A DNA stretch of 61,896 nt, the filler included, from Bonamia ostreae (Eukaryota): NCBI GenBank assembly GCA_040357525.1. It is 20 parts of 20 records of this genome, joined end to end, with 100 filler letters (N's around TTAATTAATTAA, not from the genome) between each part and the next. Parts side by side here need not be neighbours in the genome. Positions count along the whole stretch, not along the records: positions 9,374 to 12,389 come from JBDODL010000612.1; 19 more parts are not named here. One strand, written 5' to 3'. Shown piece after piece: positions 1,005 to 49,591 of the stretch. Made by a program: the position numbers and the translations under genes. The notes under the pieces are model-generated. The model did not search any database and was not told where the DNA came from. It saw only the letters and a list, made by a program, of their open reading frames with translations. Positions within the stretch are counted from its first letter, which is position 1. Each line of letters starts with the position of its first letter.

Positions 1005-1118
1005 AAAATTTAGCCAAAAAAACAAACAAACATATTCACTTTTTAATAAAGCTCTATTTAACCACAAAATAAACAAATAACAAACTGCAATACGATCCCG
1101 AAAAGTCCAAAAAGTCAT

Positions 1119-2352
1119 ATGGACGAAATTTTGAAAAACAAAAATTCGATAAAAGGGTTTGTAGATGGCTGGAGGAACAAAAGAAAACAAAGTCTCTTCG
1201 CGCAGCAAAATGAACAGCGCCAAGAAAAACTAGAAAAAATGCGAACTCTTTTCGCAACGCCTTTCAACAATCAAAACAATCAAAACAATAAAAACAATCA
1301 AAACAATAAAAACAACCAAAACAACCAAAACTCGAAAAAAAGCACGAACAGAATCGCAAAAGAAGGCAACAAGCACGTCTCCGAAGCCTTTATGGTATCC
1401 GAATGGATGCTCGACGTGCCCAAAGATCTTGGCACGGATTGGCTCGTCTATCCGCTCCCGACAGGCAGCCACTGCTTGGTAACCGCCTCAAACGGTGCCA
1501 CCTTCAGCCACCGTGTTTCGGGCCACCGATTCCAGCAGTTCTTTAAGTCATTGCTCCCCGGCGGCAATCCGGACAACCCGTCCCCCTTCACACAACTCGA
1601 TTGTATCTACAACCACGAAACAAGCACTTTTTTCGTGCGCGACTTGTTATATTGGAACTCGGTTTCGTTCGTAAACTGTGACGCGGAATTGCGTCTTTCG
1701 TGGATCCGGTCCAAATTGGCTGAAAAGCAGTACCAAAACGAGTCGAATCAAAACCGTTTTGCTTTTTGTGCAGCGCCAGTTTCCGATTGCTCCCCGACTA
1801 ACTTGAAAAGCGCCTATTTGTGGCCGGACAGCGACTATCGTCTCGCCGAATCGGTCGAGAGAGGTCTGAATCCAGAGGTCTTTGTTCGGGGACTATCGAG
1901 CAAAGAAAGTTCGGGGCGAATAGACAGAGACGGGTTGCAGTTCATACACAAAAACTCGATTTACGTGCAAGGCCCTAACGCTTTGTTGCTTAAATGGAAA
2001 GACAGCACTTCAAAATATTTCATTGACGACTGCGAGGAAAAGATAATTACGTTGAAGATCACAAAAAACAAAATTTACACGTTTGACAAAATTGAGGTTA
2101 TCAACGACAATTTGGGAGACAATTTGGAAGAGCAAATCGGTCGATTTAAATATGACCAAATTTTAATTCAAAGGACAAAGGAGACGAAGATTGCGGTGAA
2201 GTTTGAGAACCTCGTTTATTTGGGAGAGTCAAAAGTTTTAAAATTATTTTTAGAGGTCGAGAGCACAGTTACTGTCTAGAATAGTCTTTCAGTACCTTTC
2301 GCGTAAAAACGAAACGGCGTCTTTTACAAAATTGCTAAGTCTTGTTATGTGA
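1119..2352 (+). CDS. SNUPN: Snurportin-1 (m3G-cap snRNP import adaptor)
   Basis: FMVSEWMLDVPKDLGTDWLVYPLPTG, LDCIY, DGLQFIHK..YVQG. A 19-nt intron at 2235-2253 restores the C-terminal RSRAQLLSRIVFQY. N/Q microsatellite near 1266-1330. Confidence 0.88.
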
Positions 2353-9373: not shown

Positions 9374-10427
9374 TCCATTCTGTTTACGTTTTCAAATCCT
9401 TCTTTTGTGACATCATTTCTTTCAGTTTTTCCAAAACTATCTTTACTGTTATCATCTGTTCCGTCTATTTTAATAAACTTTCCATTGATTCTGGGCCTTT
9501 TCTCGGCAAAAACTTTTCTCCTCGGATATTTTGTCACTCCGCTTTTGTTCAACGCAAACATTTTCTTTCTAAACTGTAAAATCATTCTTCTTCTCTTCTC
9601 AGACCCGTAAACTGTATCGTAAGTTTTATTACAATGCGCTCTGATTCTTTTGCATTTAAAGTTTTATTACCTTCTCAGATAAAGGTCTCGAAATTCTTTG
9701 TTGTCTTGTCTCAACAGATTTTCAGAAGGATTTATTTTCACAGAAGGATTCAAAGCAAAATTTTTCTCAAGGTGACGATTGTGCATAAAATTTTTCAGAT
9801 TCGGAATGTTCCCGTTGTTATTTGAAGGGATTCTGCAACTCTCTGTGATTCGCCGTTGTTTCAATAAGGTATTTTGACCGTCTTTTCTCAAAATTGGTTT
9901 ATTTTTTGACTCTTTAAAGCAAGTTTTGAAAAAGTTTGTGTTTCGTGCATTAAAATTTTGTTCGCAGTTCAATCTCTTATTTTTGTTGTTATTGTTGCCA
10001 AAATTCGGTTCAAAAGTCGATTGATTTCTAAACGGGCACTTGTTTGCAACGCCAAAAATATTGTTTTCGTTGTTATCGAAACCGAAAAAATTATCCAAAA
10101 ATTTAATGTTGCGATTTATAACGCTCTGCGAAATGGGTAAACTTGTTTTGGACGCTTCTAAAAATTTAATGTTGTAACGGTTTGAATCGAGAGAGCCGAG
10201 GCCAAACTCGGCAATTTTTCCGGTAAGTGGGATGATGTTGTCTTTCTTGGTGTCTGGAATGCATTTCGTACCAATGTCATCATTTATTTCCCGTAAAAGT
10301 TGAGTCTACATTTTATGTGAATTAAAGAAGTAACATTGAATGACTGATTGCTATTCTCCAAAGAAGAACAAATTTTGTTCTCCGTTTGATGCCGGTCAGT
10401 GGGATCACCCGAAAACAAATGATTCAT
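9374..10427 (-). CDS. CCT (CONSTANS/CO-like/TOC1)-motif protein, 3' truncated
   Basis: After removing 29-nt and 25-nt introns it reads YGSEKRRMILQFRKK...KYPRRKVFAEKRPRINGKFIK, matching the CCT consensus Y..RK.YAE.RPR.KGRF. Confidence 0.75.
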
Positions 10428-11388
10428 ATCAAAAGTTATAAAAACCATTAAATAAAAATATTGTTATCGCTTAAAGAATTGTGCCGGATATCAATCGAAT
10501 TTGATTCGCCAAATTTGCGACACAACTCCTTTTTTATTAATCGCGTTCTTTTTGCATTGTCACATCAAATTCATTTGTTGTTGTTACCTTTTCTATTAAA
10601 TTATGCAGATAACAAAACAACAAAGCAAGTTAAAGACGTCAAAGAAAAAATACTGGAATAAAAAGTTGTAACAGGGAACATAAAAAAAACGTTTGTATTC
10701 ATAGAAACATTAAAAAAATGTTTATGTTCATAGAAACATGAAATTTGATTTATAATGACGACGAAACTATAAATAATAAAAAGATTACTATTTCTAAACA
10801 TCTACATTTATTCTTTAGGAGCTGTAGTTTCACTTTCCAAGAAGCTTTTTTCGTGCATGGCACACTGGAATATTTGTGTGTCTAGATATCTTCTTCTTTG
10901 CATGCTCTAAAAGTCGAAAGTTTTAATCTTGCAACGTCTTCAAAGACATGAGAATAGATTTCATTTGATGTGAATCAATATTGATTCTTTGTTGTAACTT
11001 TTTCCAAAGTATAAAAAAGCTAATAGATTAATATTTTTGAAGAAGAAATCATTGATTTCAAAAACTTTTGAGACATAAATGTTACTTTTTGGTTTGTTAC
11101 AGCAAATTAACAATCGATGAAACACCTGAAATGTTATCTGCTTTTCTTCTTTTCTCTTTTTATTTTCTCTGTTTTGTCTTTGGTTCTGTGTTAAAATCGC
11201 CTAAAGTATCAAATCTCGTGTTGACCATATTTTTGAAGATTGGCGTAAAATTGGTTTGACCATATTTACAATTTGTATTTTTGTTAAACTAAAAATTTTG
11301 TTCGTTTGATTTGACGAAACTAAAGATTAAAATCTTTGTTGCTCCAGAATAATTTTAAAAAATGATAAACAAAAAATGATCATTTCAT

Positions 11389-11949
11389 TTAAACTAATTC
11401 CAATTTGGCTCCCGCTTTTTTCAGCTCCTCCATAAACTTCGTTCCCTCTTCTTTCTGCAAATCGCCTTTCAATGTACACGGCGCGGAGTCAACTAGATTT
11501 TTAGACTTTATTGTTTTTGTTGAAACTTCTTTGAGACCGAGCGAAAACAGTGATCTGACTACTTTGATCACACCGATTTTCTTCGCTGGCTCGAAGCCTT
11601 TTAACTTCAAAGTATAGCTTTTTGTGTCATCTTCTTCGCCTGTTCCTTCCACTTTTTTGGATTTATCGGCGGAAACGGGCTGTGCAAGCGAAACAGGAGG
11701 AGAGTTCAACGCGGAGTCGGGAATTTTCAATTTTGTTTTTAAAGAGTTCACAAAATGAGACATTTCCATAACGTTGAGTTTGCAAACATGATTCACTAGT
11801 TCTTCAACGTGCGAGTCAGATTCTAATTTGAAGTTTTTTTCTTCGATTGTTGTAGAAAAAGATTGCAATTTTACAAAATTGATTTGCAATTTTTTGTGTG
11901 CCCTTAACAATCTAAATCTGCGCAAATTATTAAATGAAATAGTGTTCAT
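11389..11949 (-). CDS. MRPL12: Mitochondrial ribosomal protein bL12 (L7/L12)
   Basis: Presequence-like N-terminus; KKIGVIKVVR...LGLKE|SKNLVDSAP...LKKAGAKLEL, with an in-frame 21-nt intron at 11506-11526. Confidence 0.92.
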   Translation of the reverse strand: MNTISFNNLRRFRLLRAHKKLQINFVKLQSFSTTIEEKNFKLESDSHVEELVNHVCKLNVMEMSHFVNSLKTKLKIPDSALNSPPVSLAQPVSADKSKKVEGTGEEDDTKSYTLKLKGFEPAKKIGVIKVVRSLFSLGLKEVSTKTIKSKNLVDSAPCTLKGDLQKEEGTKFMEELKKAGAKLELV

Positions 11950-12028
11950 TTGAACTTCCGAATTTAGGAATATTTTTAGTTCGCTGAGATATAGAAGTTT
12001 TAAACTTTCTGTTTAGCCATTAAGCAAA

Positions 12029-12389
12029 ATGGCGGAAAATTTGCAGAAATCATTTGTTTTAGATAGATTTTACGAACTACGGATTCACCCAAAAAAGGAC
12101 ATTTCGTTCAAATTAAAAGTTGCGAATTTTAAATTTAGCTAAATAACGGAACTGCTGAGATCAACGGGGCCGAGATGATCATTTCAAAGCAATATCTTTT
12201 CAATACAAATTTTTACGACTCTCTGGCCGTTTTTTCATGGTCTGGCTGCACCATAACTATATCCTTTCAAGATTTAGCTATTGTAATATTTAGTCTTCTG
12301 TTCGAAATCTTAATTTTAAATATCATTTCTTTTTCGAAAAATCTCCTTAAATTTTAACGTTTCCGGAGAAGTCGATCACGCTTATAAAG
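12029..12389 (+). CDS. CLP1: Polyribonucleotide 5'-hydroxyl kinase / cleavage factor Clp1, 5' part
   Basis: YELRI...KLK|LNNGTAEINGAEM...LAVFSWSGCTIT|VSGEVDHAYK matches the Clp1 N-terminal domain. Introns at 12119-12138 (GT-AG) and 12259-12358 (AT-AC). Confidence 0.85.
12259..12358 (+). other. U12-type (minor spliceosome) AT-AC intron
   Basis: 5' ATATCCTTTC, branch-like TCCTTAA at 12344-12350, terminal AC at 12357-12358. Removing it restores the Clp1 frame. Confidence 0.82.
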
Positions 12390-12584: not shown

Positions 12585-13403
12585 ATGACCATAAAACCGA
12601 AAGATCAACTTTTTGGGCATGTCGAATTGATTCTAGGGCCGATGGTTTTGCTTGTTCAACTCTAAACAGTTCAGCGGAAAAACGACAGAATTGTTTAGGA
12701 GAATCAGACGCTACACTTTCGCGAACCTTCAATGTTATCTGATTAAGTACAAAAATGACAATCGCTACTCTTCAGTAGCTTCGACACACGACAAGTTTTA
12801 ATGTTAGAACGTTACGAATATGCACATAGAATCAGATTAGAGGCGGTCAGTTGCACGAATTTGGGCGAGGCGGAAAAATCTTCTGCTGGATACGATGTGA
12901 TAGGAATTGACGAAGGACAGTTTTTTCCAGGTTTCGCTGATTCTGAATAAAAGACATTGTCGAATTTTGCCAAAAAATGGCTGAGAATGGAAAAATAGTG
13001 GTCGTAAGTGCTCTAAATGGCACATATCAGCGAAAACCATTCGACGTTATTTCGAGGTTAGTTCCGATTTCGGAAAAAATGACAAAGCTTTCTGCGATTT
13101 GTATGGTTTGCTATGGCGAAGCTCATTTTACAAAAAGGTTCTTGCAAAATTTTTGATCGTTTTATTTTTAATGAGAGTGTAGTGCTGTTTCCATTTTATT
13201 AAAATTTTGCAAAATGTCATTGTAACAAATATAGTTTTTTGCTTTTATGTCGGAATATTTATTACTAACATAGAACCGTGTCTTCGAACAAATTAGAACT
13301 GATCGGGGGATCAGAGTTTTATATTGCGACATGCAGAAAATGCTTCAACCTCGAAAACGACAAAATAAAAAACATAAAGTCTCCGTCGATGTTCAGTGAG
13401 TAA
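12585..13403 (+). CDS. TK1: Thymidine kinase (TK1 family), four introns
   Basis: [52 protein letters not shown]. Absent from the ORF track because short introns fragment it (e.g. 12645-12669). Confidence 0.93.
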
Positions 13404-16051: not shown

Positions 16052-16504
16052 TTTAAGTTTTGGGCTTTAATAAAAATTTTATGATTTTATGCAGTTTGTT
16101 GTTAAGGATTTTATGGAACTGTGGAAAGAAGAATTTATTTTTGTGTCGGAGAATTAAAATGATATTTGAAATTAAAATTGATTAATTTGTTGTTTAAATT
16201 TTTGTTTACATTAACTAAAAAACAATAAAAAAAATTATCTTTAAATTTAATAAAAAATCGGCAATTTGAAGGGTTTTCAACTTAAAATAAGACATATAAG
16301 GTAAATTTAGAATCGATCAATTTGAGTAATTGCCACATGAGATGAAATACAAATGTATATAACCTTGTTAAAAACTGTGTCTTATAGATTACTTAATAAA
16401 GAAAAAACTGTTAATTTAAAAAAAGTAAGAAGTTAATAAAGTATAAAAATCGAGAAATAAAAAAAAATTTAAAAATGGTGTTGAAAAACACCGGTATAAT
16501 TAGT

Positions 16505-16870
16505 CTATTTCTGAGATTTTTGGCTCTTCGACTTTGGAAGCAAAACACTGTGAATCGACGGCAGTACTCCCGCACCGGGAATTGTCGTGTCGTTCATTAA
16601 TTTGCTGAGCTCCTCGTCATTTTGCACCGCCAACTGAATGTGACGAGGCGAAATGCGTCTCTTCTTGTTGTCGCGAGCAGCGTTTCCAGCCAGTTCCAAA
16701 ACCTCCGCGGCCAAATATTCGACTACCCCGGTCAAATAAATCGCAGAGCTAACGCCCACTTTCGGGGCGTATCGGCCGTTTCTGATATAGCGATTAACTT
16801 TGGAGACGGGGAACGTCAAACCGGAACGAGAAGACTTTGACTTTCTTGCTTTTCTGATTGTTTTGCTCAT
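16505..16870 (-). CDS. H2A: Histone H2A (intronless)
   Basis: [54 protein letters not shown]. Confidence 0.98.
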
Positions 16871-17387
16871 TTCAGATTTTACTGTCTAAAACACGAAGTT
16901 AATTTATAAAACCAAAAATTAGCAATTTAGTTTGGTTTGTGGGTTTATATCGAGCCAAATTTTTGGATTTAAGAATTTTTACTTTTATAAGTTTTTTCTA
17001 TGTCGCAAATATCGACTTTTTAAATGTTATTTTGTCTACAGATTTTGTTTTCAAATTTTTATTGTTTCATATTTTCTTGTTTTTATTATCTCTATAATTC
17101 ATTGTTCAAAGTTTTTGTTTTTTGTGTACACATTTGTAAGATCTTCCATTAATTCTTGTAAGAATTTCCACTAATTAATTACTTCGGGCACAAGACGTCG
17201 AATTAATAATAACGCAAAATTTTTTTGAAATTAATTTTGTAAAATTTTTTCAAAATATTTTCGATGTAAAAAATATTTCAATGTTCATAAATTTAAAATT
17301 CAATATTAAAAAATATGAAGAATGGACAATAAAAGTAAAAACAAGAAATTTGATAAGAATATGTAAAACGATGGCATCTTAAAAAAT

Positions 17388-21824: not shown

Positions 21825-23314
21825 CTAAAATTCACACGCGGAAGATCTGTAGAAGTAGTCGCTGCCGCTTGTTTACTTATCGCTTGCCGTCTCAACAACC
21901 ATCCTGTTCTTTTAGTCGATTTCCTTGAACATTTGTCTTTGCGGGTCGCTCCAAAAGTGCTCTGCCGCATTTGTATTCACTTGGCCCAACGTTTGCACAT
22001 AACGCTTCCGCCTGTTTTGGGGGATGTCGACGAATCGTCACAACACCAAGATTCGTCTGCTTATCTGTATCGATTTGCTTCAAAACTTAGCTTTGGCGAC
22101 AATTCGACCGTCCGAGGAGTTGCAACAACAGCTTTGCGCATTTTGGTGCGGATGCAAGAAGATTGGATTCATTGGGGACGCCATCCGTCGGGTCTTTTTG
22201 GGGCAGCCTTGTTGATTGCTGGTCTTAATTTATATTTTGTTGTTGCCAACTTTTCAAATTTGATTGAAAATTTTGTNNNNNNNNNNNNNNNNNNNNNNNN
22301 NNNNNNNNNNNNNNNNNNNNNNNNNNNNNNNNNNNNNNNNNNNNNNNNNNNNNNNNNNNNNNNNNNNNNNNNNNNNTTTGCAGTTTTTGTTCTTTTGTTT
22401 TGCCATTTTGAACTAAAATAATATTTTGCAGTTTTTGTTCTTTTGTTTTGCCATTTTGAACTAAAATAATATTTTGCAGCGATTTTGAAATATTTCGTTT
22501 TAATAAATATCTTAATTACAAATTTATTGGAAAATTAGCCCGTTTGCATGGATTCAAGAGATCACGTAAAGAAGTCTCAAACGTGGTGTACATAACAGAC
22601 GTCACAATAGGACTGAGATTGGGTGATTTTTCGAATACTCCGTCAGCTGCACTCTCAATGGCAGAGTTCGACAACAAAGATTTAAGCCCTTGCAATCCTC
22701 CCGCCTTCGAGCGTAGTCAGAACAGACAAACTGAAAAAGACTGTTTTTAATACAAATTTTAATATCGAAAAGTGAAAATAAAATGGCCCAAAAAACTGCC
22801 TTCGAGGCCGAAAGATGTTCAAAACTGGATAGAAAACGGAATGGGCTTCGGAAAACATGACAAAAAAATCAAAGTAAAAAACGCCGAACATTTTGAAGAA
22901 AAATTTGAAGATCCTATTTTGTTGGAAGAAAATTTTGAAGACGAAGAAGAAAACGTTTTCTGTGATTCGGAAGATTTGGATAGAATGGCAGATCTTTATA
23001 TCATTAAAGATACCAAAGAAAAGGACAGAAAATTCAAAATTTGGGAGTTAATGAATCGAGAATGGACAGAAACCAAAAAACGGAAAGAGGAAGAAAAGCG
23101 ACTCGAAAAAGAAATGAAATCGAAGAAGAAACCGAAAAAGGAGAGAAAATCGAAAAGGACGATGCCGTTGGGTTACAAAACTGTTTTAGAAGATTTTGAG
23201 AAAGAAGAATCCAAAATCTACAACAAAATTGGCGATGAAGCTTTGCTAGATAATTTGTTGGACGAGAAAATCGATTTGGATCTTTTCGGTATTGACGGAA
23301 TCGATGATTTTTAA
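21825..23314 (+). CDS. BRF1: TFIIIB 90 kDa subunit Brf1 (5' truncated)
   Basis: FTRGRSVEVVAAACLLIACR, MQEDWIHWGRHPSGLFGAALLIA|ARLHGF, DFSNTPS, NPPAF, KFKIWELMNREW. Confidence 0.92.
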
Positions 23315-31036: not shown

Positions 31037-31382
31037 NNNNNNNNNNNNNNNNNNNNNNNNNNNNNNNNNNNNNNNNNNNNTTAATTAATTAANNNNNNNN
31101 NNNNNNNNNNNNNNNNNNNNNNNNNNNNNNNNNNNNAAATTTAAACAAATAATAAAGAAATAAGTTCTTGTGAAACCAATTTTGCAATCTCTATTGTAAA
31201 ATTTATTGGCTAACTCTACAGAAGTTTGAAAACTTCTTTTAAATATAACATTAGAAAAGAAGTTTTCCAATAAAAAAGAAAACTACTTTTTGAAATCTAT
31301 TTCGTTTTATTAAAATGATTTGTGCTAGACATTTCAATTTGTAAAGAAAACTACTGTTTGAAAACAACATTGTAAACATTTG

Positions 31383-34136
31383 TCACAATTTATTTCTCTG
31401 CAACTTCCTGGGGTCTATTGCAAGACATTTTGAAAAATTGTGTGTTTTGTAGACTCCCACAAGCCTTTCTGCCGCTTCAAACATGCTGTGTCTGAGACTG
31501 ACAATCACAAACTGCGCGTCTCTGCGCTGAGACTGGATGTGGCGGGCCACAATGGAAACGTTCTTGAAGTCGAGTGCAGCATCTATTTCGTCCATCACGT
31601 ACAGCGGAGTCGGTTTGAAATGGTGCAAGGCGAACACCAATGACAACGAGGACAACGTTTTTTCTCCGCCGGACAAATTTGAGATATTTTTCCAACTTTT
31701 TTTCGGAGGGCGGACTGAAAACTCGATTCCCTCGGAAAAGGGGTCGAATCGGTCCACGCATTCCAATTCGGCGTCTCCGCCCAATGTGAGCTGTTGATAG
31801 ACCTCCTTCAGTTTTTTCGTGATGACCGAGAAGCCAGCCATAAACTCCGAGTGTCTGTTTTGACATTAAAAACCTGGCCTTTCTGAACTCGTCGTAGTCA
31901 TGTCTCGCTGAATCGGCCCGGCGAGTGGCGTCCCCGAGAGACTCGATGCGACTTTTGTACTCGGTAAGTTTCGCCCGGTATTCCTCGATGACCGCCATGT
32001 TCGGCTCCATCTCTTCCATTTCGTTTTTGAGGCGTTCGGCGTCTGCTTCCAGCTCGTTTTTGTTTCCTGGGGGAGCATCGAGATCATTCGGAGGTGCGGT
32101 GAACCTTCTGAAGCCTTCCGAGTCATCCTCCGCGAGGATTTCTTCTGTTCTCCTGATTTTGTTAAGCAACTCGTCTTTTTTCTTCTCCCGCGCAGCAATC
32201 TATCGTTTGAGATTGAAAAATGTTAATATTGTCGATTTGGTCTTTTTAATTTCCCGGTAACGGTTGTGCTTCTACTGGAGACTGAACCAGCGTACATATC
32301 TTAGACTCGGCATCTGTGCAGATACCGCGTCCGATAAAACCTCGCCTGAGTCTTGACTGCCCACTTCGGTTTTCACCTTTTGTGAGACAGAAACNNNNNN
32401 NNNNNNNNNNNNNNNNNNNNNNNNNNNNNNNNNNNNNNNNNNNNNNNNNNNNNNNNNNNNNNNNNNNNNNNNNNNNNNNNNNNNNNNNNNNNNNTCATTA
32501 AAGTCAAAGTTTTTTAAGGGCAACTTAAGTAAATTGGGAGTTCGGATAAACCTATCTCAGTTTGGAGGCGACAGCATCGATATTCGAACCCTTGCACACA
32601 TGAATGCGTAACATCGTTCGAAACACTGAGCCATCGCGCCCATTATTGTTGATTTTTATAATTTAAATTTTTGAAAATCAGTTTGCATCAACCTTGGCGC
32701 GATTGCTTTCCAGGTTGACGTTAAAGTCTTTGAGCTGGTCCTCGATATCCACCAATGACAAACGCAGTCTTTTTCCTTCTTCTTCCAAGTCGGCCAAGGC
32801 CTCTTTGCGCGCGTTAATCTTGGCTTGTTCCTCGCCCCGTTTCTTCTTCTCTTCGAACTGCGCTTTCAGCAGTTTCTTCGCTTCCGCTTCGATTTCCGTG
32901 GATCGTTTTTCCAACTTTCCCAATGCTTCCCGGGCTTCCGACAGTCTCTTCTCCAAGTCCGCCAGCTTGGCTTTGCCTCTGCGCACATTCTTTTCACCCA
33001 AAGAGACCGCGGCGTTCATCTCTGCCAGTTTCCTGCAAATTGATTTGAAAGAACGAGTTGGCGGCGTCTCTCCGATTGTCCAACTTTGCTAGCGCCTCCT
33101 TTGCCCTCTTCACGTCCTTCCCGCCGGACTCAAACAACCTGCTCTCCAGTTCTGCGCACTCCTCCGTGAGGTTTTTCGCGTCAAACTCGGCTTTCGACAA
33201 GTCGCCTTCCGCCCGAGCCAGCTCTTCGGCGCTTGCCTTTTTCTTGCGCGCGAACTCCTCCTCTGATTCCGAAGCCAACCGCCGGCGCTTATCCAGCTTC
33301 AATTCAAGGCTCCGCGCAATTTCGCGTCCGTCCGCGAGGTCAATCTGGAGTTTCTTCGCCTTGAGTTTGGTGCGCTCGAAATCAGTCTTCAGCAAGTCCG
33401 CGCGGTCCGCGAGGCTTTTCTCGGCGGAAGAGAGCTTCCTCAGTCTAAAGTTGGGAAGGCGAACCGCTCGGAGGTGGCGTCGAACTCCGCTTCCAGAACA
33501 GCAAGTTTCTCGCCGCCGGCGTCGTGGCCCGACGGCTTCTGGCCGCTGTGCTCGATTCCGCCGCGTCTTTTCGTGCGTCCTCCGCCGCTCATGGTCCCGC
33601 TGGCGTCCAAGAGCTCGCCTATCGCGGTGACCACTCTCCACCTGCGCCCGCCCGAACTCGCGATGCGCACCGCCTGCTCGATCTCCTCCGCGAAGAGAGT
33701 GTCCCTCAGCGCGCAGTAGAAGGCGGTGCGATAGCGTGGCTGCGTCTTGACAAGGTCGAACAACCGTGGAACGTGCTCCGGAGTGAGGACACGCCGCCCG
33801 CAGACTTCGGCGAAGTGGCTCTGTTTGTCGAGCAATAAAAAGTTTGCGCGTCCCAGCCTCCGATCTCTGTAAGTTAGTGGTTGAACTTTAGGTGCCGCAC
33901 GCAGGCCGCGCCCGTGTCCGCGCTGTCCACCAGCACGCTCCAGAGCAGAGGCGCCGCTGTAGATACCGCGACATCGTACTTTCGGTCGATCGAGGCCAGG
34001 CTGCCCAGCCGCCCTTCGATCCCGGGCAGTTGCCCGCTCCGCTTCAGACGCAGAACTTCGCCCAGAACGCCCGCCGAAGCGCGCGACCTGTCTCGGGTGC
34101 GCCTCGCCTCAGCGAGCTGCTGTCCGAGCCGGCGGT
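31383..34136 (-). CDS. SMC4: Condensin subunit SMC4 (hinge to C-terminus)
   Basis: LGRANF, VPRLFDLVK, WRVVT..GELLDASGTMSGGG, SVRPPKKSWKNISNLSGGEKTLSSL, PTPLYVMDEIDAALDFKNVSIV. Introns of 19-22 nt plus one long intron at 32200-32692. Confidence 0.96.
32260..32640 (-). mobile_element. Putative tRNA-derived SINE or pseudo-tRNA inside an SMC4 intron
   Basis: The head (32567-32640, minus) reads GGCGCGATGGCTCAGTG (A box)...GGTTCGAAT (B box)...GTCGCC with a degenerate cloverleaf. A higher-GC body follows, and an assembly gap lies inside it. Confidence 0.5.
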
Positions 34137-35815: not shown

Positions 35816-37235
35816 ATGGATAACGAGTTTATTAAAGCATCTAATAAAAATTCGGAAGATTTGAGTTTTTAAAAACATTTAAAGAAGCGAAAATTCTGGC
35901 CCTACAAGAAGTAGGCGACATCCCAGCAATTTTCCTACATCTCAATGATTTCTTTTTTAATAATGGATCATTGGCCGCCCTTGGAGATTTGAAATTTGCT
36001 TCTGAAATTAAGGAAACGCCGGATGAACAACCAAAATATCAACAACCTGTTGTAATACCAGAATCGGTTTTTGATGTCAAGGATATGATGGATACTCTAA
36101 TCCGCGAATTAAATGATCTGATTCCAAAATATAAACATCTTTTCGAACTGAGTTTTTTCCCAATATTAATTAGGAAAAGAATTTTGTAGAAATGCAAAAG
36201 AAGCCGCAGGCACAACAAATATTGGAGATACGACAAACAAGTTAATGCAGTCATTCAAAGAGTTGACGGAAAAGTTGAACAGACCACCAAATTTTACAAT
36301 CCCTTTGCTTTCCGAGACAAGCATCGAAGCATCATTTATAAACCATTTTTTCGTGATGCTCAATGAACAAACTGTCACCTATGTACCGAAAATTTTATTC
36401 CTCGCAGATAAGGTGACTGCAAAATATCAAAAAATGACTTTTGATTTGACCGTTGATATGTTTGCTCACTTATGTTCTATTTTTTACTAAATAGTCAAAG
36501 CAGACAAACCCGGAGATCCTGTTTCTAAGGACGGAATAGCCTTTTTACGAAGTGTCCAAGCTGTCCACTTGCGTTCTATCCATGATGGAGAAATTTTCGA
36601 AATGATAGGATCGAAAATGCATGGAACAGCGATTTCTTCCCAGATTAATGAAGAGACACAAGAGATGTTAGAAGAAGCATTACAAGAAGAGAAAACCGAA
36701 TTCTCTGATTTATCAAAACATCCGTATCCACAGCATCCATACAGGGAAAAGTTTGCGAATCTGGGAAAAATAAAGGATATTGTCGAAACTGTCAAAGTAT
36801 ATTCTTTAAGAACTCGGTCAAATCTTGAATCACTGAAGAAGTGCCTGCTAGAAATTCATACTAGCGTTGCACCTTCCGACTGTAGTCTATTATCTAATGA
36901 GTTATCATCTATATGCCCTAATGCATTACAAAGTTTTATCAAAAACATTGAAAGAGAGTTTCGTCGCTCTTTTTAAAAAATTTGCGAAAGCCATTGAAAA
37001 AGGCTGTCTTGTGATAGATGTCAAGTTCGGGACAAAAGATTCTTTAGTCGAAGAGTTAAAAATATATTGCGGTTTTTTTCAGCTATGTTAAAGAAGAATT
37101 GTTGGTACCTGCAGACAAAGTTGTCTTATATTGATTATTAATAAATCATGAACAACATTTTTTAACTTTTCAGAACAAAATTTTTTGTCTGATGTAAAAT
37201 TTGGTTTTGATAATAAATCGAGTTTAGAATATCGT
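35816..37235 (+). CDS. Hypothetical multi-exon protein
   Basis: Successive plus-strand ORFs separated by short GT-AG segments; no motif recognised. Confidence 0.5.
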
Positions 37236-46612: not shown

Positions 46613-46985
46613 CGAAAAAAATAAAATAATGAAAAAAAAAATAAAATTTGGGCAAAAAAAATTTGACTAAAAAAATAAAATTTGAACAAAAAATAAAAAT
46701 GGCGAAAAAAATAAAATAATGAAAAAAATAAAATTTGGAAAAAAAATTTGAACAAAAAATAAAAATGGCGAAAAAAATAAAATTTGGGAAAAAAAATTTG
46801 AACAAAAAATAAAAATGACGAAAAAAATAAAATTTGGGCAAAAAAATTTGACTAAAAAAATAAAATTTGGACAAAAAATAAAAATAATGAAAAAAAATAA
46901 TTTGGACAAAAAATAAAAATAATGAAATAAAATAATTTGGACAAAAAATAAAAAATGAAATTTAAACAAAAAACAAAATTTGTGC
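46613..46985. repeat. A-rich tandem repeat forming a DHPS intron
   Basis: Repeated AAAAAAATAAAATTTG(A/G)ACAAAAAATAAAAATG units. Confidence 0.8.
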
Positions 46986-46989
46986 AAAA

Positions 46990-48024
46990 CCTTAAAAGCC
47001 CAATAACAAACAGATCTTTCATCGTCAATTTCTTTTCCTAAACGGTCGATTACCTTCGAAGGAGTCCAAACGACGCCATTTTGATCTTGCTCATCTTGCA
47101 TTCTGTGGATTATCGGAACGATCCAATCTTCAAACTTGCAATAGTTTTCATTCGGGACGAGCAAATTGCCGATCCGATTATGTCCTTTTTCCCGTAATTT
47201 TTTCCCGTCCAAATTGAAATCGCCGATGTAATGCGGCGCGAGACATTTTATCAGATCTTCTTCGATTCCGCCGCCTGTTGTCACAATGACATCTATTTTT
47301 CTGTGCTTAACCAAATAGACCAGACTTTCTCGGATTCCGCTGGATATCATGTTTGACGTGTAGCCAAGAAAAATGGTACATTTCTGGTTTTCTTTTGTTT
47401 CTGTAGTTTTTTGTGTCGGTCGCCATTTTATCTTTTAATGACAAATTTTTATTAAAATCGCGAAGAAAAAATTTTTATTCAAATCTCAAAATATTTTGAA
47501 GAAAAATTAAAATAGCGAAGAAAAAAATTTCGAAAAAAATATTTAAAATCGCAAATACAAAAATTTTTATTAAAATCGCAAAGAAAAAATTTCGTAAAAA
47601 AAATTTAAAATCGCAAATACAAAAATTTTTAAAATCGCAAAGAAAAAATTTCGAAGAAAAAAAATATTTATAAAATCTCAAAGAAAAAAATTTTGTGTTT
47701 GAAACTGCAAATACATTAACAAAACCATTATAAAAATATTTTACAATAAAAACCATTTTGTTTATGGTTTCAGCAGCCAACCCGAGATTTGTAGCTTGAA
47801 ATCCGGTAGTTTTAAAAGATCTAAAAAATGCTTCCGAATCAAAATCCCCATCAAAAGCATATCCTTTGACTTCAGGATGACCTTCTGGCATCGGCGAACA
47901 TTCAACAAGTACAGCCTCAGAAGCTTTTTTCGGCTTTTACATTTTTTAATTCTTGCATATAAATACAAATTTCAATGACTACAGGACTATATATAAAAAC
48001 TATCGTCGAGTTTTTGTCTGCCAT
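46990..48024 (-). CDS. DHPS: Deoxyhypusine synthase (3' truncated)
   Basis: [61 protein letters not shown]. Confidence 0.96.
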
Positions 48025-48079: not shown

Positions 48080-49591
48080 ATGTCTAAAGTCGAAGGAAAT
48101 GAATATCCTTCTCCCGGTCTAATTAGAAGCGTTTCAGCAAATTTTTCTGGTGAAAAAACGGTCGTCATCATGGTCGGATTGCCGTACATGGGAAAGTCGT
48201 TTGTTGCCAGAAAACTATATCGGTTCTTCTCGTGGCTCGGGTTCAATGCCAAAGTTTGCTAATTCGAATAGTTTCAGATTTTCAATGTGGCGGACCGCAT
48301 CCAAAACGAAATCGATTCAAGTTGGACAAACGACCATGAACTGCGGAAAAAATATTCTTGCAAAGTACTTTATGAACTTACGAACTATCTGAAAAACGAA
48401 GGGGGCAACTTGGGAATTTATGACGCTACAAATTGTAGTAAGGACAGAAGAAAACTTGTTATTGAGATACTTAAAAGTAGTCTCAAAAACGAAGAATATC
48501 ATGTTGGTTTATATAATTTTTTTCGTTGTTAAAATTTTGAGGAAAATAAATATTTTTCGTTGTTTAAATTTCGAGGAAAATAAATATTTTTCGTTTTTAA
48601 AATTTTGAGGAAAATAAATATTTTTTGTTTTTAAATTTCGAAGAAAATAAATATTTTTCGTTCTTTAAAATTAAAGAAAAAAAATATTTTTCGTTGTTTA
48701 AATTTTGAGGAAAAAAATTTAATTTTAAAAAAATATTCAAAATTTAATTAAAAAAAAACATTGCAAAATATTTCAAAAAAACACAATAAAAAAGTTTGGG
48801 TGGAGTCATCCTGCGGCGATGAGCGATTAGGGCAAATTCGCCAAAAAAAGTTTAGGAAAAGAGGACAAAGCGCCGAAGAAATTGCAATGGAAAAAGAGAA
48901 AATGAAATATTACGAGAGCAAATACGAGCCATTCGATGAAGATTCTGAGCTCTACATCAAAATTTACGAATTCCAAAAACTGGTTAGCAACAAAATCGAA
49001 GGTTACATTCCAGCCAAAATGTTGTACTTTTTATCAAACGTTAAAATCGAACCGAAACCTCTGTTCTTCACCCGCCACGGAGAAAGTGAATATAACGTTT
49101 TGGATAAAGTTGGTGGTGACAGCCCTTTATCCGCGTACGGAAGAAAGTACGCTGGGGAATTATATGGCTTCATGAAAACTCAACCCGAATTCGATGAGGT
49201 CAAAACTAAATTTTGTGGTCAAACTTTATAACGAAAGACTAAATTTTATTGTAAAGAAAACAAAAATATATTGTTCGACATTGAAGCGCACTATAGAAAC
49301 GATTAAAATATCGGGTTTCAACAAACAAAAAAGACCTCCGATTGAATGGAGAGCCCTGTCGGAAATCGAAGTAGGAATTTGTGACGGAATGTCTTACAAA
49401 GAAATCGAAGAAAAAATGCCTGAAGAATATGAAAAGAGAAAAATTGACAAGCTTAATTACAGGTTGACTAAAATGGAAATTTGTAAAAATAATCAAAAAT
49501 TTGGAAATTCGAAAAAATATTTCGGAAATAAAAAATTGCAAGAAAATAAAAAATTTCGGACATTTGAAAATATAAAATTTTGAAATTTGTG
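48080..49591 (+). CDS. PFKFB: 6-phosphofructo-2-kinase/fructose-2,6-bisphosphatase (3' truncated)
   Basis: VIMVGLPYMGKS, IYDATN, TRHGESEYNV..VGGDS, LSEIEVGICDGMSY. Confidence 0.94.

Follow-up and report, generated by a model that had tools for sequence, protein, structure and literature searches.

Minor (U12-dependent) splicing goes back to the last eukaryotic common ancestor, and its losses since then have been numerous. In animals and plants it is carried out by a minor spliceosome with U11, U12, U4atac, U6atac and U5. The introns begin with a 5' splice site of the consensus /[AG]TATCCTT and carry a branch-site motif resembling TCCTTAAC about 8–20 nt from the 3' splice site. Donor and branch motif are bound together by the U11/U12 di-snRNP. 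The positions of U12-type introns are reportedly strongly conserved, as is said to follow from work of Basu et al. in 2008.

Blastocystis, a stramenopile gut parasite with short introns, has kept minor splicing. According to passages of PMC10639083 and PMC5608401, 77% of its minor introns are AT-AC and 49% lie in phase 0, and all four minor snRNAs were found together with seven specific proteins. The first of these sources gives hundreds of minor introns with a mean length of ~42 nt and, in the passages on animals, losses of minor splicing in nematodes, myxozoa, oikopleurids and tardigrades; its main text, as far as available, has no mention of Rhizaria, Plasmodiophora, Bigelowiella, Endomyxa, Reticulomyxa or names in Ascetospor-. 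For Rhizaria, passages of a survey of 263 species state that minor spliceosome components were not identified, and minor-like introns are reported for Reticulomyxa (PMC11347168). This was the only publication found to link rhizarian names with U12 or U6atac, in a literature search that covered passages of main texts. The mikrocytids belong to the Ascetosporea, the parasite class of Bonamia. In passages of PMC10245619 the major introns of Mikrocytos are 16–17 nt long, only U2, U4 and U6 are mentioned as snRNAs, and minor introns do not appear.

Bonamia ostreae is a haplosporidian oyster parasite (Rhizaria, Endomyxa, Ascetosporea). Its assembly comprises 12.24 Mb in 9,705 scaffolds with an N50 of 1,417 bp and 33.3% G+C, and passages of the genome paper give ~2 introns per mRNA under the wording 'canonical introns' (PMC11069148). 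These passages state no intron length, and neither 'U12' nor 'minor' was found in the main text seen. The terms splicing, introns, U11, U12 and snRNP were not found in the passages of the transcriptome paper (PMC9329632).

We describe here a 100-nt segment of the B. ostreae CLP1 gene that is, very probably, a true spliceosomal intron of the U12 type (minor class) with AT-AC termini (positions 12259–12358). It resembles the canonical AT-AC introns of U12 type known from animals and plants in its donor ATATCCTTT, in the motif TCCTTAA near the 3' end, in its AT-AC termini and in a position shared with distant orthologues. In contrast to those organisms, Bonamia belongs to the rhizarian parasites; its assembly comprises 12 Mb, its major introns measure ~20 nt, and we infer its minor machinery from the intron. 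The phase of the intron, phase 0, is less usual for minor introns, accounting for ~22% on average in passages of PMC10639083. With Blastocystis it shares the setting of a SAR-group parasite with short introns; there, however, hundreds of minor introns averaging ~42 nt and the complete set of snRNAs and specific proteins have been described (PMC10639083; PMC5608401, in part), whereas in Bonamia a single intron of 100 nt stands for a machinery that is presumed. Compared with the mikrocytids, as far as the passages of PMC10245619 go, Bonamia has major introns of 18–30 nt instead of 16–17 nt and at least one U12-type intron.

Structure of the CLP1 gene

The analysed stretch of DNA, referred to as the window, comprises 61,896 bases, or ~0.5% of the 12.24 Mb assembly. 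It consists of 20 scaffolds of 2,973–3,029 bases ordered by falling length and joined by 19 linkers of the form N44-TTAATTAATTAA-N44; four further gaps of 100 N are present. As the scaffolds are unrelated pieces of ~3 kb, neighbourhood across a linker is meaningless. The CLP1 scaffold occupies positions 9374–12389. It ends 31 nt past the intron, so that exon 3 is represented in the window by just 31 nt; the remainder of the gene, with the central P-loop kinase domain and the C-terminal domain expected of Clp1, falls outside it.

Exon 1 (12029–12118, plus strand) starts with the ATG at 12029 and comprises 30 codons (MAENLQ...SFKLK), identical to residues 1–30 of the deposited protein P0001 and covered by a contig of the sequencing run X5 (see below). 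It is followed by a GT-AG major-type intron of 20 nt in phase 0 (12119–12138, plus strand; GTTGCGAATTTTAAATTTAG), which is missing from the X5 contig. The 40 codons of exon 2 (12139–12258, plus strand; LNNGTAEING...SWSGCTIT) align with Clp1 relatives and encode part of the Clp1 N-terminal β-sandwich domain: the Pfam profile CLP1_N scores 33.7 bits (cut-off 22.3) with an E-value of 3.9e-8 over profile positions 22–58 of 92. Extending exon 2 by read-through into the segment that starts at 12259 raised this score by only 1.1 bits. Exon 3 (12359–12389, plus strand) is cut by the scaffold end after VSGEVDHAYK and one further base; it aligns without gaps to (I/V)TGKTEVAY and similar sequences. The CLP1 product is presumably the polyribonucleotide 5'-hydroxyl-kinase and cleavage-polyadenylation factor subunit.

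When exon 2 was used in a word-based search of proteins, three candidates and one match resulted, the window's own protein P0001 (102 aa, 100% identical). It is deposited at NCBI as 'Cleavage polyadenylation factor subunit clp1 [Bonamia ostreae]' and stems from a contig of 3,016 nt. An origin from a dicyemid, which the introns of ~20 nt and a 'mollusc metagenome' run had at first suggested, was discarded on account of this name; literature on minor splicing in dicyemids yielded nothing relevant. P0001 is composed of exon 1, exon 2 and a read-through into the AT-AC intron as far as the stop; in the deposited model, the 20-nt intron was thus removed and the AT-AC intron missed. With P0001 as the query, phmmer retrieved 14 proteins at E-values up to 0.001 from 1.84 billion representatives, P0001 included. 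In eight of them W-x-G-C-x-x-x is followed by (V/I/F/A/L)(T/S/V)(G/N/H), with which VSG at the start of Bonamia exon 3 agrees. The spliced three-exon product aligns with 12 Clp1 relatives without a gap across the junction (VSGEVDHAY compared to ITGKTEVAY).

The segment between exons 2 and 3 (12259–12358, plus strand) lies in phase 0. It opens with ATATCCTTTC (12259–12268), and the nine nucleotides ATATCCTTT at 12259–12267 conform to the U12-type donor consensus. The motif TCCTTAA (12344–12350, plus strand) matches 7/8 of the branch-site consensus TCCTTAAC, and its last A is located 8 nt before the last base of the intron, 12358. The segment ends in AC (12357–12358, plus strand). The spacing between branch site and 3' end is usually 10–15 nt, which places the 8–9 nt of the Bonamia intron at the short end. 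A U2-type AT-AC intron would have an ATAAGT-like donor and be without the TCCTTAAC branch motif; the Bonamia segment instead has an ATATCC donor and does carry that motif. Without splicing, the Clp1 frame (12139+3k) runs through ...SWSGCTIT to 12258 and reaches the stop TAA at 12355–12357. On re-reading, all sequence statements of the first-pass annotation, i.e. the frame break, the donor, TCCTTAA, the AC end, the stop and the resumption at VSGEVDHAYK, were correct. Its description of a streamlined, parasite-like genome fits as well, given a deposited protein named as Clp1 of B. ostreae and an assembly of 12.24 Mb (PMC11069148, in part).

Three further features of the window lie outside the CLP1 scaffold. 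Positions 32001–34000 (scaffold 31137–34136) have a G+C content of 51%, compared to 25–38% elsewhere, and encode pieces of an SMC hinge and of SMC_N; this scaffold may be DNA of another organism or carry a compositionally odd gene. The histone 3' UTR stem-loop is weakly matched at 16451–16497 (minus strand; 21.7 bits, E 0.18, below gathering), immediately downstream of a gene for histone H2A (16508–16885, minus strand). An open reading frame at 1062–2276 (plus strand) contains a strong snurportin-1 m3G-cap-binding domain (E 6e-39), so that the adaptor for the import of Sm-class snRNPs has been kept.

Excision of the intron from transcripts

Four sequencing runs were compared with the CLP1 scaffold: X1 and X2 (DNA), X5 (RNA by guess, labelled organism B) and X6 (RNA). 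All comparisons refer to contigs, for which depth is not a measure of splicing efficiency. In X5, 16 of the 22 placed contigs match the window to 99% or more. One of its contigs joins 12258 directly to 12359 at a depth of 1815.4, skipping 100 nucleotides with the ends AT..AC. The short side of this joint comprises 30 letters, the 'both' value is 0 (the cut is unambiguous) and the entry for the skipped part reads 'between: not known'. Taking X5 as RNA, the AT-AC termini are used in RNA, at precisely the junction predicted by the first-pass annotation, and the excision restores the frame of the Clp1 N-terminal domain. A second X5 contig is unspliced; it spans 12229–12341 at a depth of 241.5 and has no differing letter.

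We take X5 as a transcriptome because the 20-nt intron at 12119 is lost (contig depth 4764.6), because the stretch 9677–11292, where both DNA runs have cover, shows zero cover, and because depths extend over four orders of magnitude (5 to 37,594). X6, which is 90–95% alike to the window and includes a poly(A) tail, contains only a small share of the stretch, over the neighbouring gene. Both DNA runs keep the 20-nt intron. An X1 contig (10703–12389) covers the whole AT-AC intron, and X1 is possibly the source of the window; the cover of X2 stops at 12229, so that X2, like X6, says nothing about the intron. The intron sequence is hence confirmed only by X1, with this proviso, and by the unspliced X5 contig.

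The proximity of the scaffold end, 31 nt beyond the intron, raises the question of an artefact: the scaffold or its end could be misassembled or derived from another organism, e.g. the host, or the X5 joint could be a deletion variant in DNA. X5 is RNA by guess and the joint was seen in one X5 contig. Moreover, the scaffold stretch was present in four DNA runs labelled organism A, with next to no words of it in many other organism-A runs; most runs with this label are without it, a patchy presence that is consistent with a passenger organism. Both the unspliced X5 contig (12229–12341, no other letters) and the X1 contig (10703–12389) match the window, which speaks against an artefact, as do the removal of the 20-nt GT-AG intron and the uncovered intergenic DNA in X5, and a skipped part whose exact AT..AC ends coincide with an intron boundary of other organisms. 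In addition, the exons share only 30–45% identity with the other Clp1 proteins, and the 20–21-nt introns of the scaffold are unlike the 305–918-nt introns of the largest metagenome group described below. Taken together we regard an artefact as very improbable.

Short major introns in the window

The first-pass annotation had set the AT-AC intron beside short major introns, and these are real. In addition to the 20-nt intron of CLP1, a GT-AG intron of 21 nt (11506–11526, minus strand) in the neighbouring mitochondrial L7/L12 gene (11389–12012) is missing in an X6 RNA contig, which represents a relative 90–95% alike and bears the poly(A) tail. This intron is in frame and free of stops, and its retention would add VSTKTIK. 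Homology-consistent introns were found in the thymidine kinase gene (23 nt, 12931–12953) and in the PFK2 gene (18 or 24 nt, starting at 48254; 48254–48277), with contiguous Pfam profile ranges on both sides in each case; overall the cases supported by RNA contigs or homology fall within 18–30 nt. Further look-alikes of 20–30 nt are located at 46852–46872 (minus strand), 36474–36494 and 22743–22772. The major introns observed here, ~18–30 nt long, mostly start with GTT, are rich in A+T and come near the 16–17 nt of the mikrocytids.

A scan for candidates bridging open reading frames gave 45 GT-AG candidates of 17–26 nt, compared to 22–54 for seven control or other boundary pairs (TT-AA 298). 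This was too noisy to serve as an intron-length distribution, and the hand-checked cases were used instead.

The AT-AC intron is four to five times longer than its neighbours, which bears out the factor of about five given earlier, on one case. At the same CLP1 site in other organisms introns are as short as 61–80 nt. Minor introns may plausibly have a length floor of their own, an idea based on this one intron.

Conservation of the intron site in other organisms

The read-through in P0001 begins with ISF, the translation of ATA TCC TTT. The same three residues directly follow the third residue behind W-x-G-C in six of the 14 phmmer proteins (P0001, P0003, P0007, P0012, P0013 and P0014). P0013 is the NCBI Clp1 model of the sea cucumber Apostichopus japonicus (132 aa). 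It has ISF at the same codon boundary, and its sequence past this point does not align with Clp1. Judged from their sequences, both the Bonamia and the sea-cucumber model seem to have been misannotated because a U12-type intron went unrecognised.

We scanned metagenome contigs with the Clp1 alignment and obtained 80 CLP1 loci, 79 of which contain the W-x-G-C motif. At the boundary three residues after GC, 34 of these 79 loci have ATATCC, three have ATATCT and four have ATAAGT; the remaining 38 run on or have another start. Many loci are close relatives, and those with a U12-like donor form about five separate groups, to which the sea cucumber, P0007 and Bonamia are added. For 30 of the 37 ATATCC or ATATCT loci the 3' end could be located. 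It gave AT-AC in 26 cases and AT-AA in four, mostly with a TCCTTA(A/G)C-like motif ~9 nt upstream. The 3' end was not found in L016, L020, L021, L022 and L029, where too little sequence is left, or in L030 and L031. A close-knit group (L001–L028) provides 24 of the AT-AC introns; these are 305–918 nt long, show TTCCTTA(A/G)C or a similar motif at a distance of ~9 nt from the AC end and are followed by an exon of the form (I/V)(T/N/V)GKTEVAYTAKETPM. In L068 and L070 the AT-AC intron is 76 nt long. The ATATCCTT introns with AT-AA termini comprise 80 nt in L035 (donor 731) and 61–66 nt in L039–L041 (donors 1764, 2115 and 2115). Their AA ends follow from where the next exon resumes and would represent non-canonical AT-AA termini.

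The comparison of the intron position across eukaryotes that had been proposed for this locus thus returned one and the same codon boundary, with 34 ATATCC and three ATATCT donors among the 80 loci and ISF in the sea-cucumber protein. Since a U12-type intron occupies this boundary in other eukaryotes, the Bonamia intron is inherited and old and not a local oddity. The reading as a U12-type AT-AC intron that joins SGCTIT to VSGEVDHAYK is accordingly supported by the X5 joint, the gap-free alignment with relatives and the shared U12-like position.

In four loci (L042, L043, L045 and L067; donors at 492, 1305, 801 and 2115) the intron at this site is of the form ATAAGT...AC, 49–50 nt long and without the TCCTTAAC motif. 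To judge by these motifs they look like U2-type AT-AC introns, possibly produced by U12-to-U2 conversion at a conserved site. They have the AT-AC termini and the CLP1 site in common with Bonamia, which differs from them in its ATATCC donor and its U12 branch motif. Their existence raises the alternative that in Bonamia, too, the segment is excised by the major (U2-type) spliceosome, the minor one having been lost and the U12-like motifs being a relic or being read by divergent major snRNAs. Such a loss would agree with the minor spliceosome components not identified in Rhizaria and with the strongly reduced spliceosome of the mikrocytid relatives (PMC11347168 and PMC10245619, each in part). 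It would also agree with the absence of minor snRNAs from the window: U11, U12, U4atac and U6atac were all without a match in these 61.9 kb when searched with Rfam at gathering scores or at E-values up to 10. The window, however, is too small a share of the genome (~0.5% of the assembly) for this absence to count. Both the donor (9 nt) and the branch motif (7/8) of Bonamia fit the U12 consensus, and a length of 100 nt, compared to 18–30 nt for major introns, suggests a different handling. The ATAAGT loci themselves speak on the same side: where the site has lost its U12 donor, the branch motif has gone too, while Bonamia keeps both, so that its intact motifs look maintained. For this reason we consider removal by the major spliceosome unlikely, and retain the assignment to the minor class.

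Specificity of the motif pattern

The octamer RTATCCTT occurs six times in the window compared to 3.05 expected, and six or more matches were reached in 8 of 100 shuffles. By itself the octamer is within chance and not remarkable. None of the other five sites is an intron; all are exonic or antisense. The site at 48103 (plus strand) lies inside a PFK2 exon, those at 47859 and 50222 (plus strand) are antisense to minus-strand genes and those at 36079 and 36773 (minus strand) antisense to a plus-strand gene.

Two places in the window show the composite pattern, in which donor, branch motif and A[CG] end are combined. In first-order Markov simulations this pattern had a mean of 0.157 per window, with at least one occurrence in 14.7% of 300 simulated windows. 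What places the CLP1 intron above chance is its coincidence with an exon end defined by the protein, with the exact X5 joint and with the intron position in other organisms. The second match, ATATCCTT...TCCTTAA...AG (88 nt, 36086–35999, minus strand), lies antisense to coding-looking open reading frames of the plus strand (35848–36976), which are joined by a typical 21-nt intron; it is probably a chance match.

Proposed splicing mechanism

Based on the motifs of the intron we propose the following course of its removal. The donor ATATCCTTT would be bound by U11, which would later be replaced by U6atac, and TCCTTAA would be recognised by U12. The attack would come from the branching adenosine, either 12349 or 12350. 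The short spacing of 8–9 nt from the branch site would then fix the terminal AC as acceptor. In Bonamia, a minor spliceosome would thus have been kept beside a major one that removes GT-AG introns of ~20 nt. RNA that remains unspliced at this site would encode the truncated 102-aa product of the deposited annotation.

Biological implications

An excised and positionally ancient U12-type AT-AC intron is thereby described for a rhizarian parasite, a group for which the searched passages of main texts do not report minor splicing. An intron that is both excised and conserved in position suggests that a minor spliceosome is present in B. ostreae, and gives a concrete reason to seek minor snRNAs and proteins in a haplosporidian. 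The loss map of minor splicing in the SAR group would be revised. At the practical level, annotation pipelines blind to AT-AC introns can break genes, such as Clp1 of Bonamia and of the sea cucumber.

It seems on balance probable that a functional minor spliceosome, not found in the survey passage on snRNAs (PMC11347168), exists in B. ostreae and hence in at least part of the Ascetosporea and Rhizaria, and that the minor introns of B. ostreae escaped the compression to ~20 nt undergone by the major ones. If so, the Rhizaria would no longer be a blank in the known distribution of minor splicing, and one small genome would display, next to each other, two spliceosomes with different lower limits of intron length. 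A minor intron of 100 nt beside major introns of 18–30 nt represents a small natural experiment in the limits of intron length.
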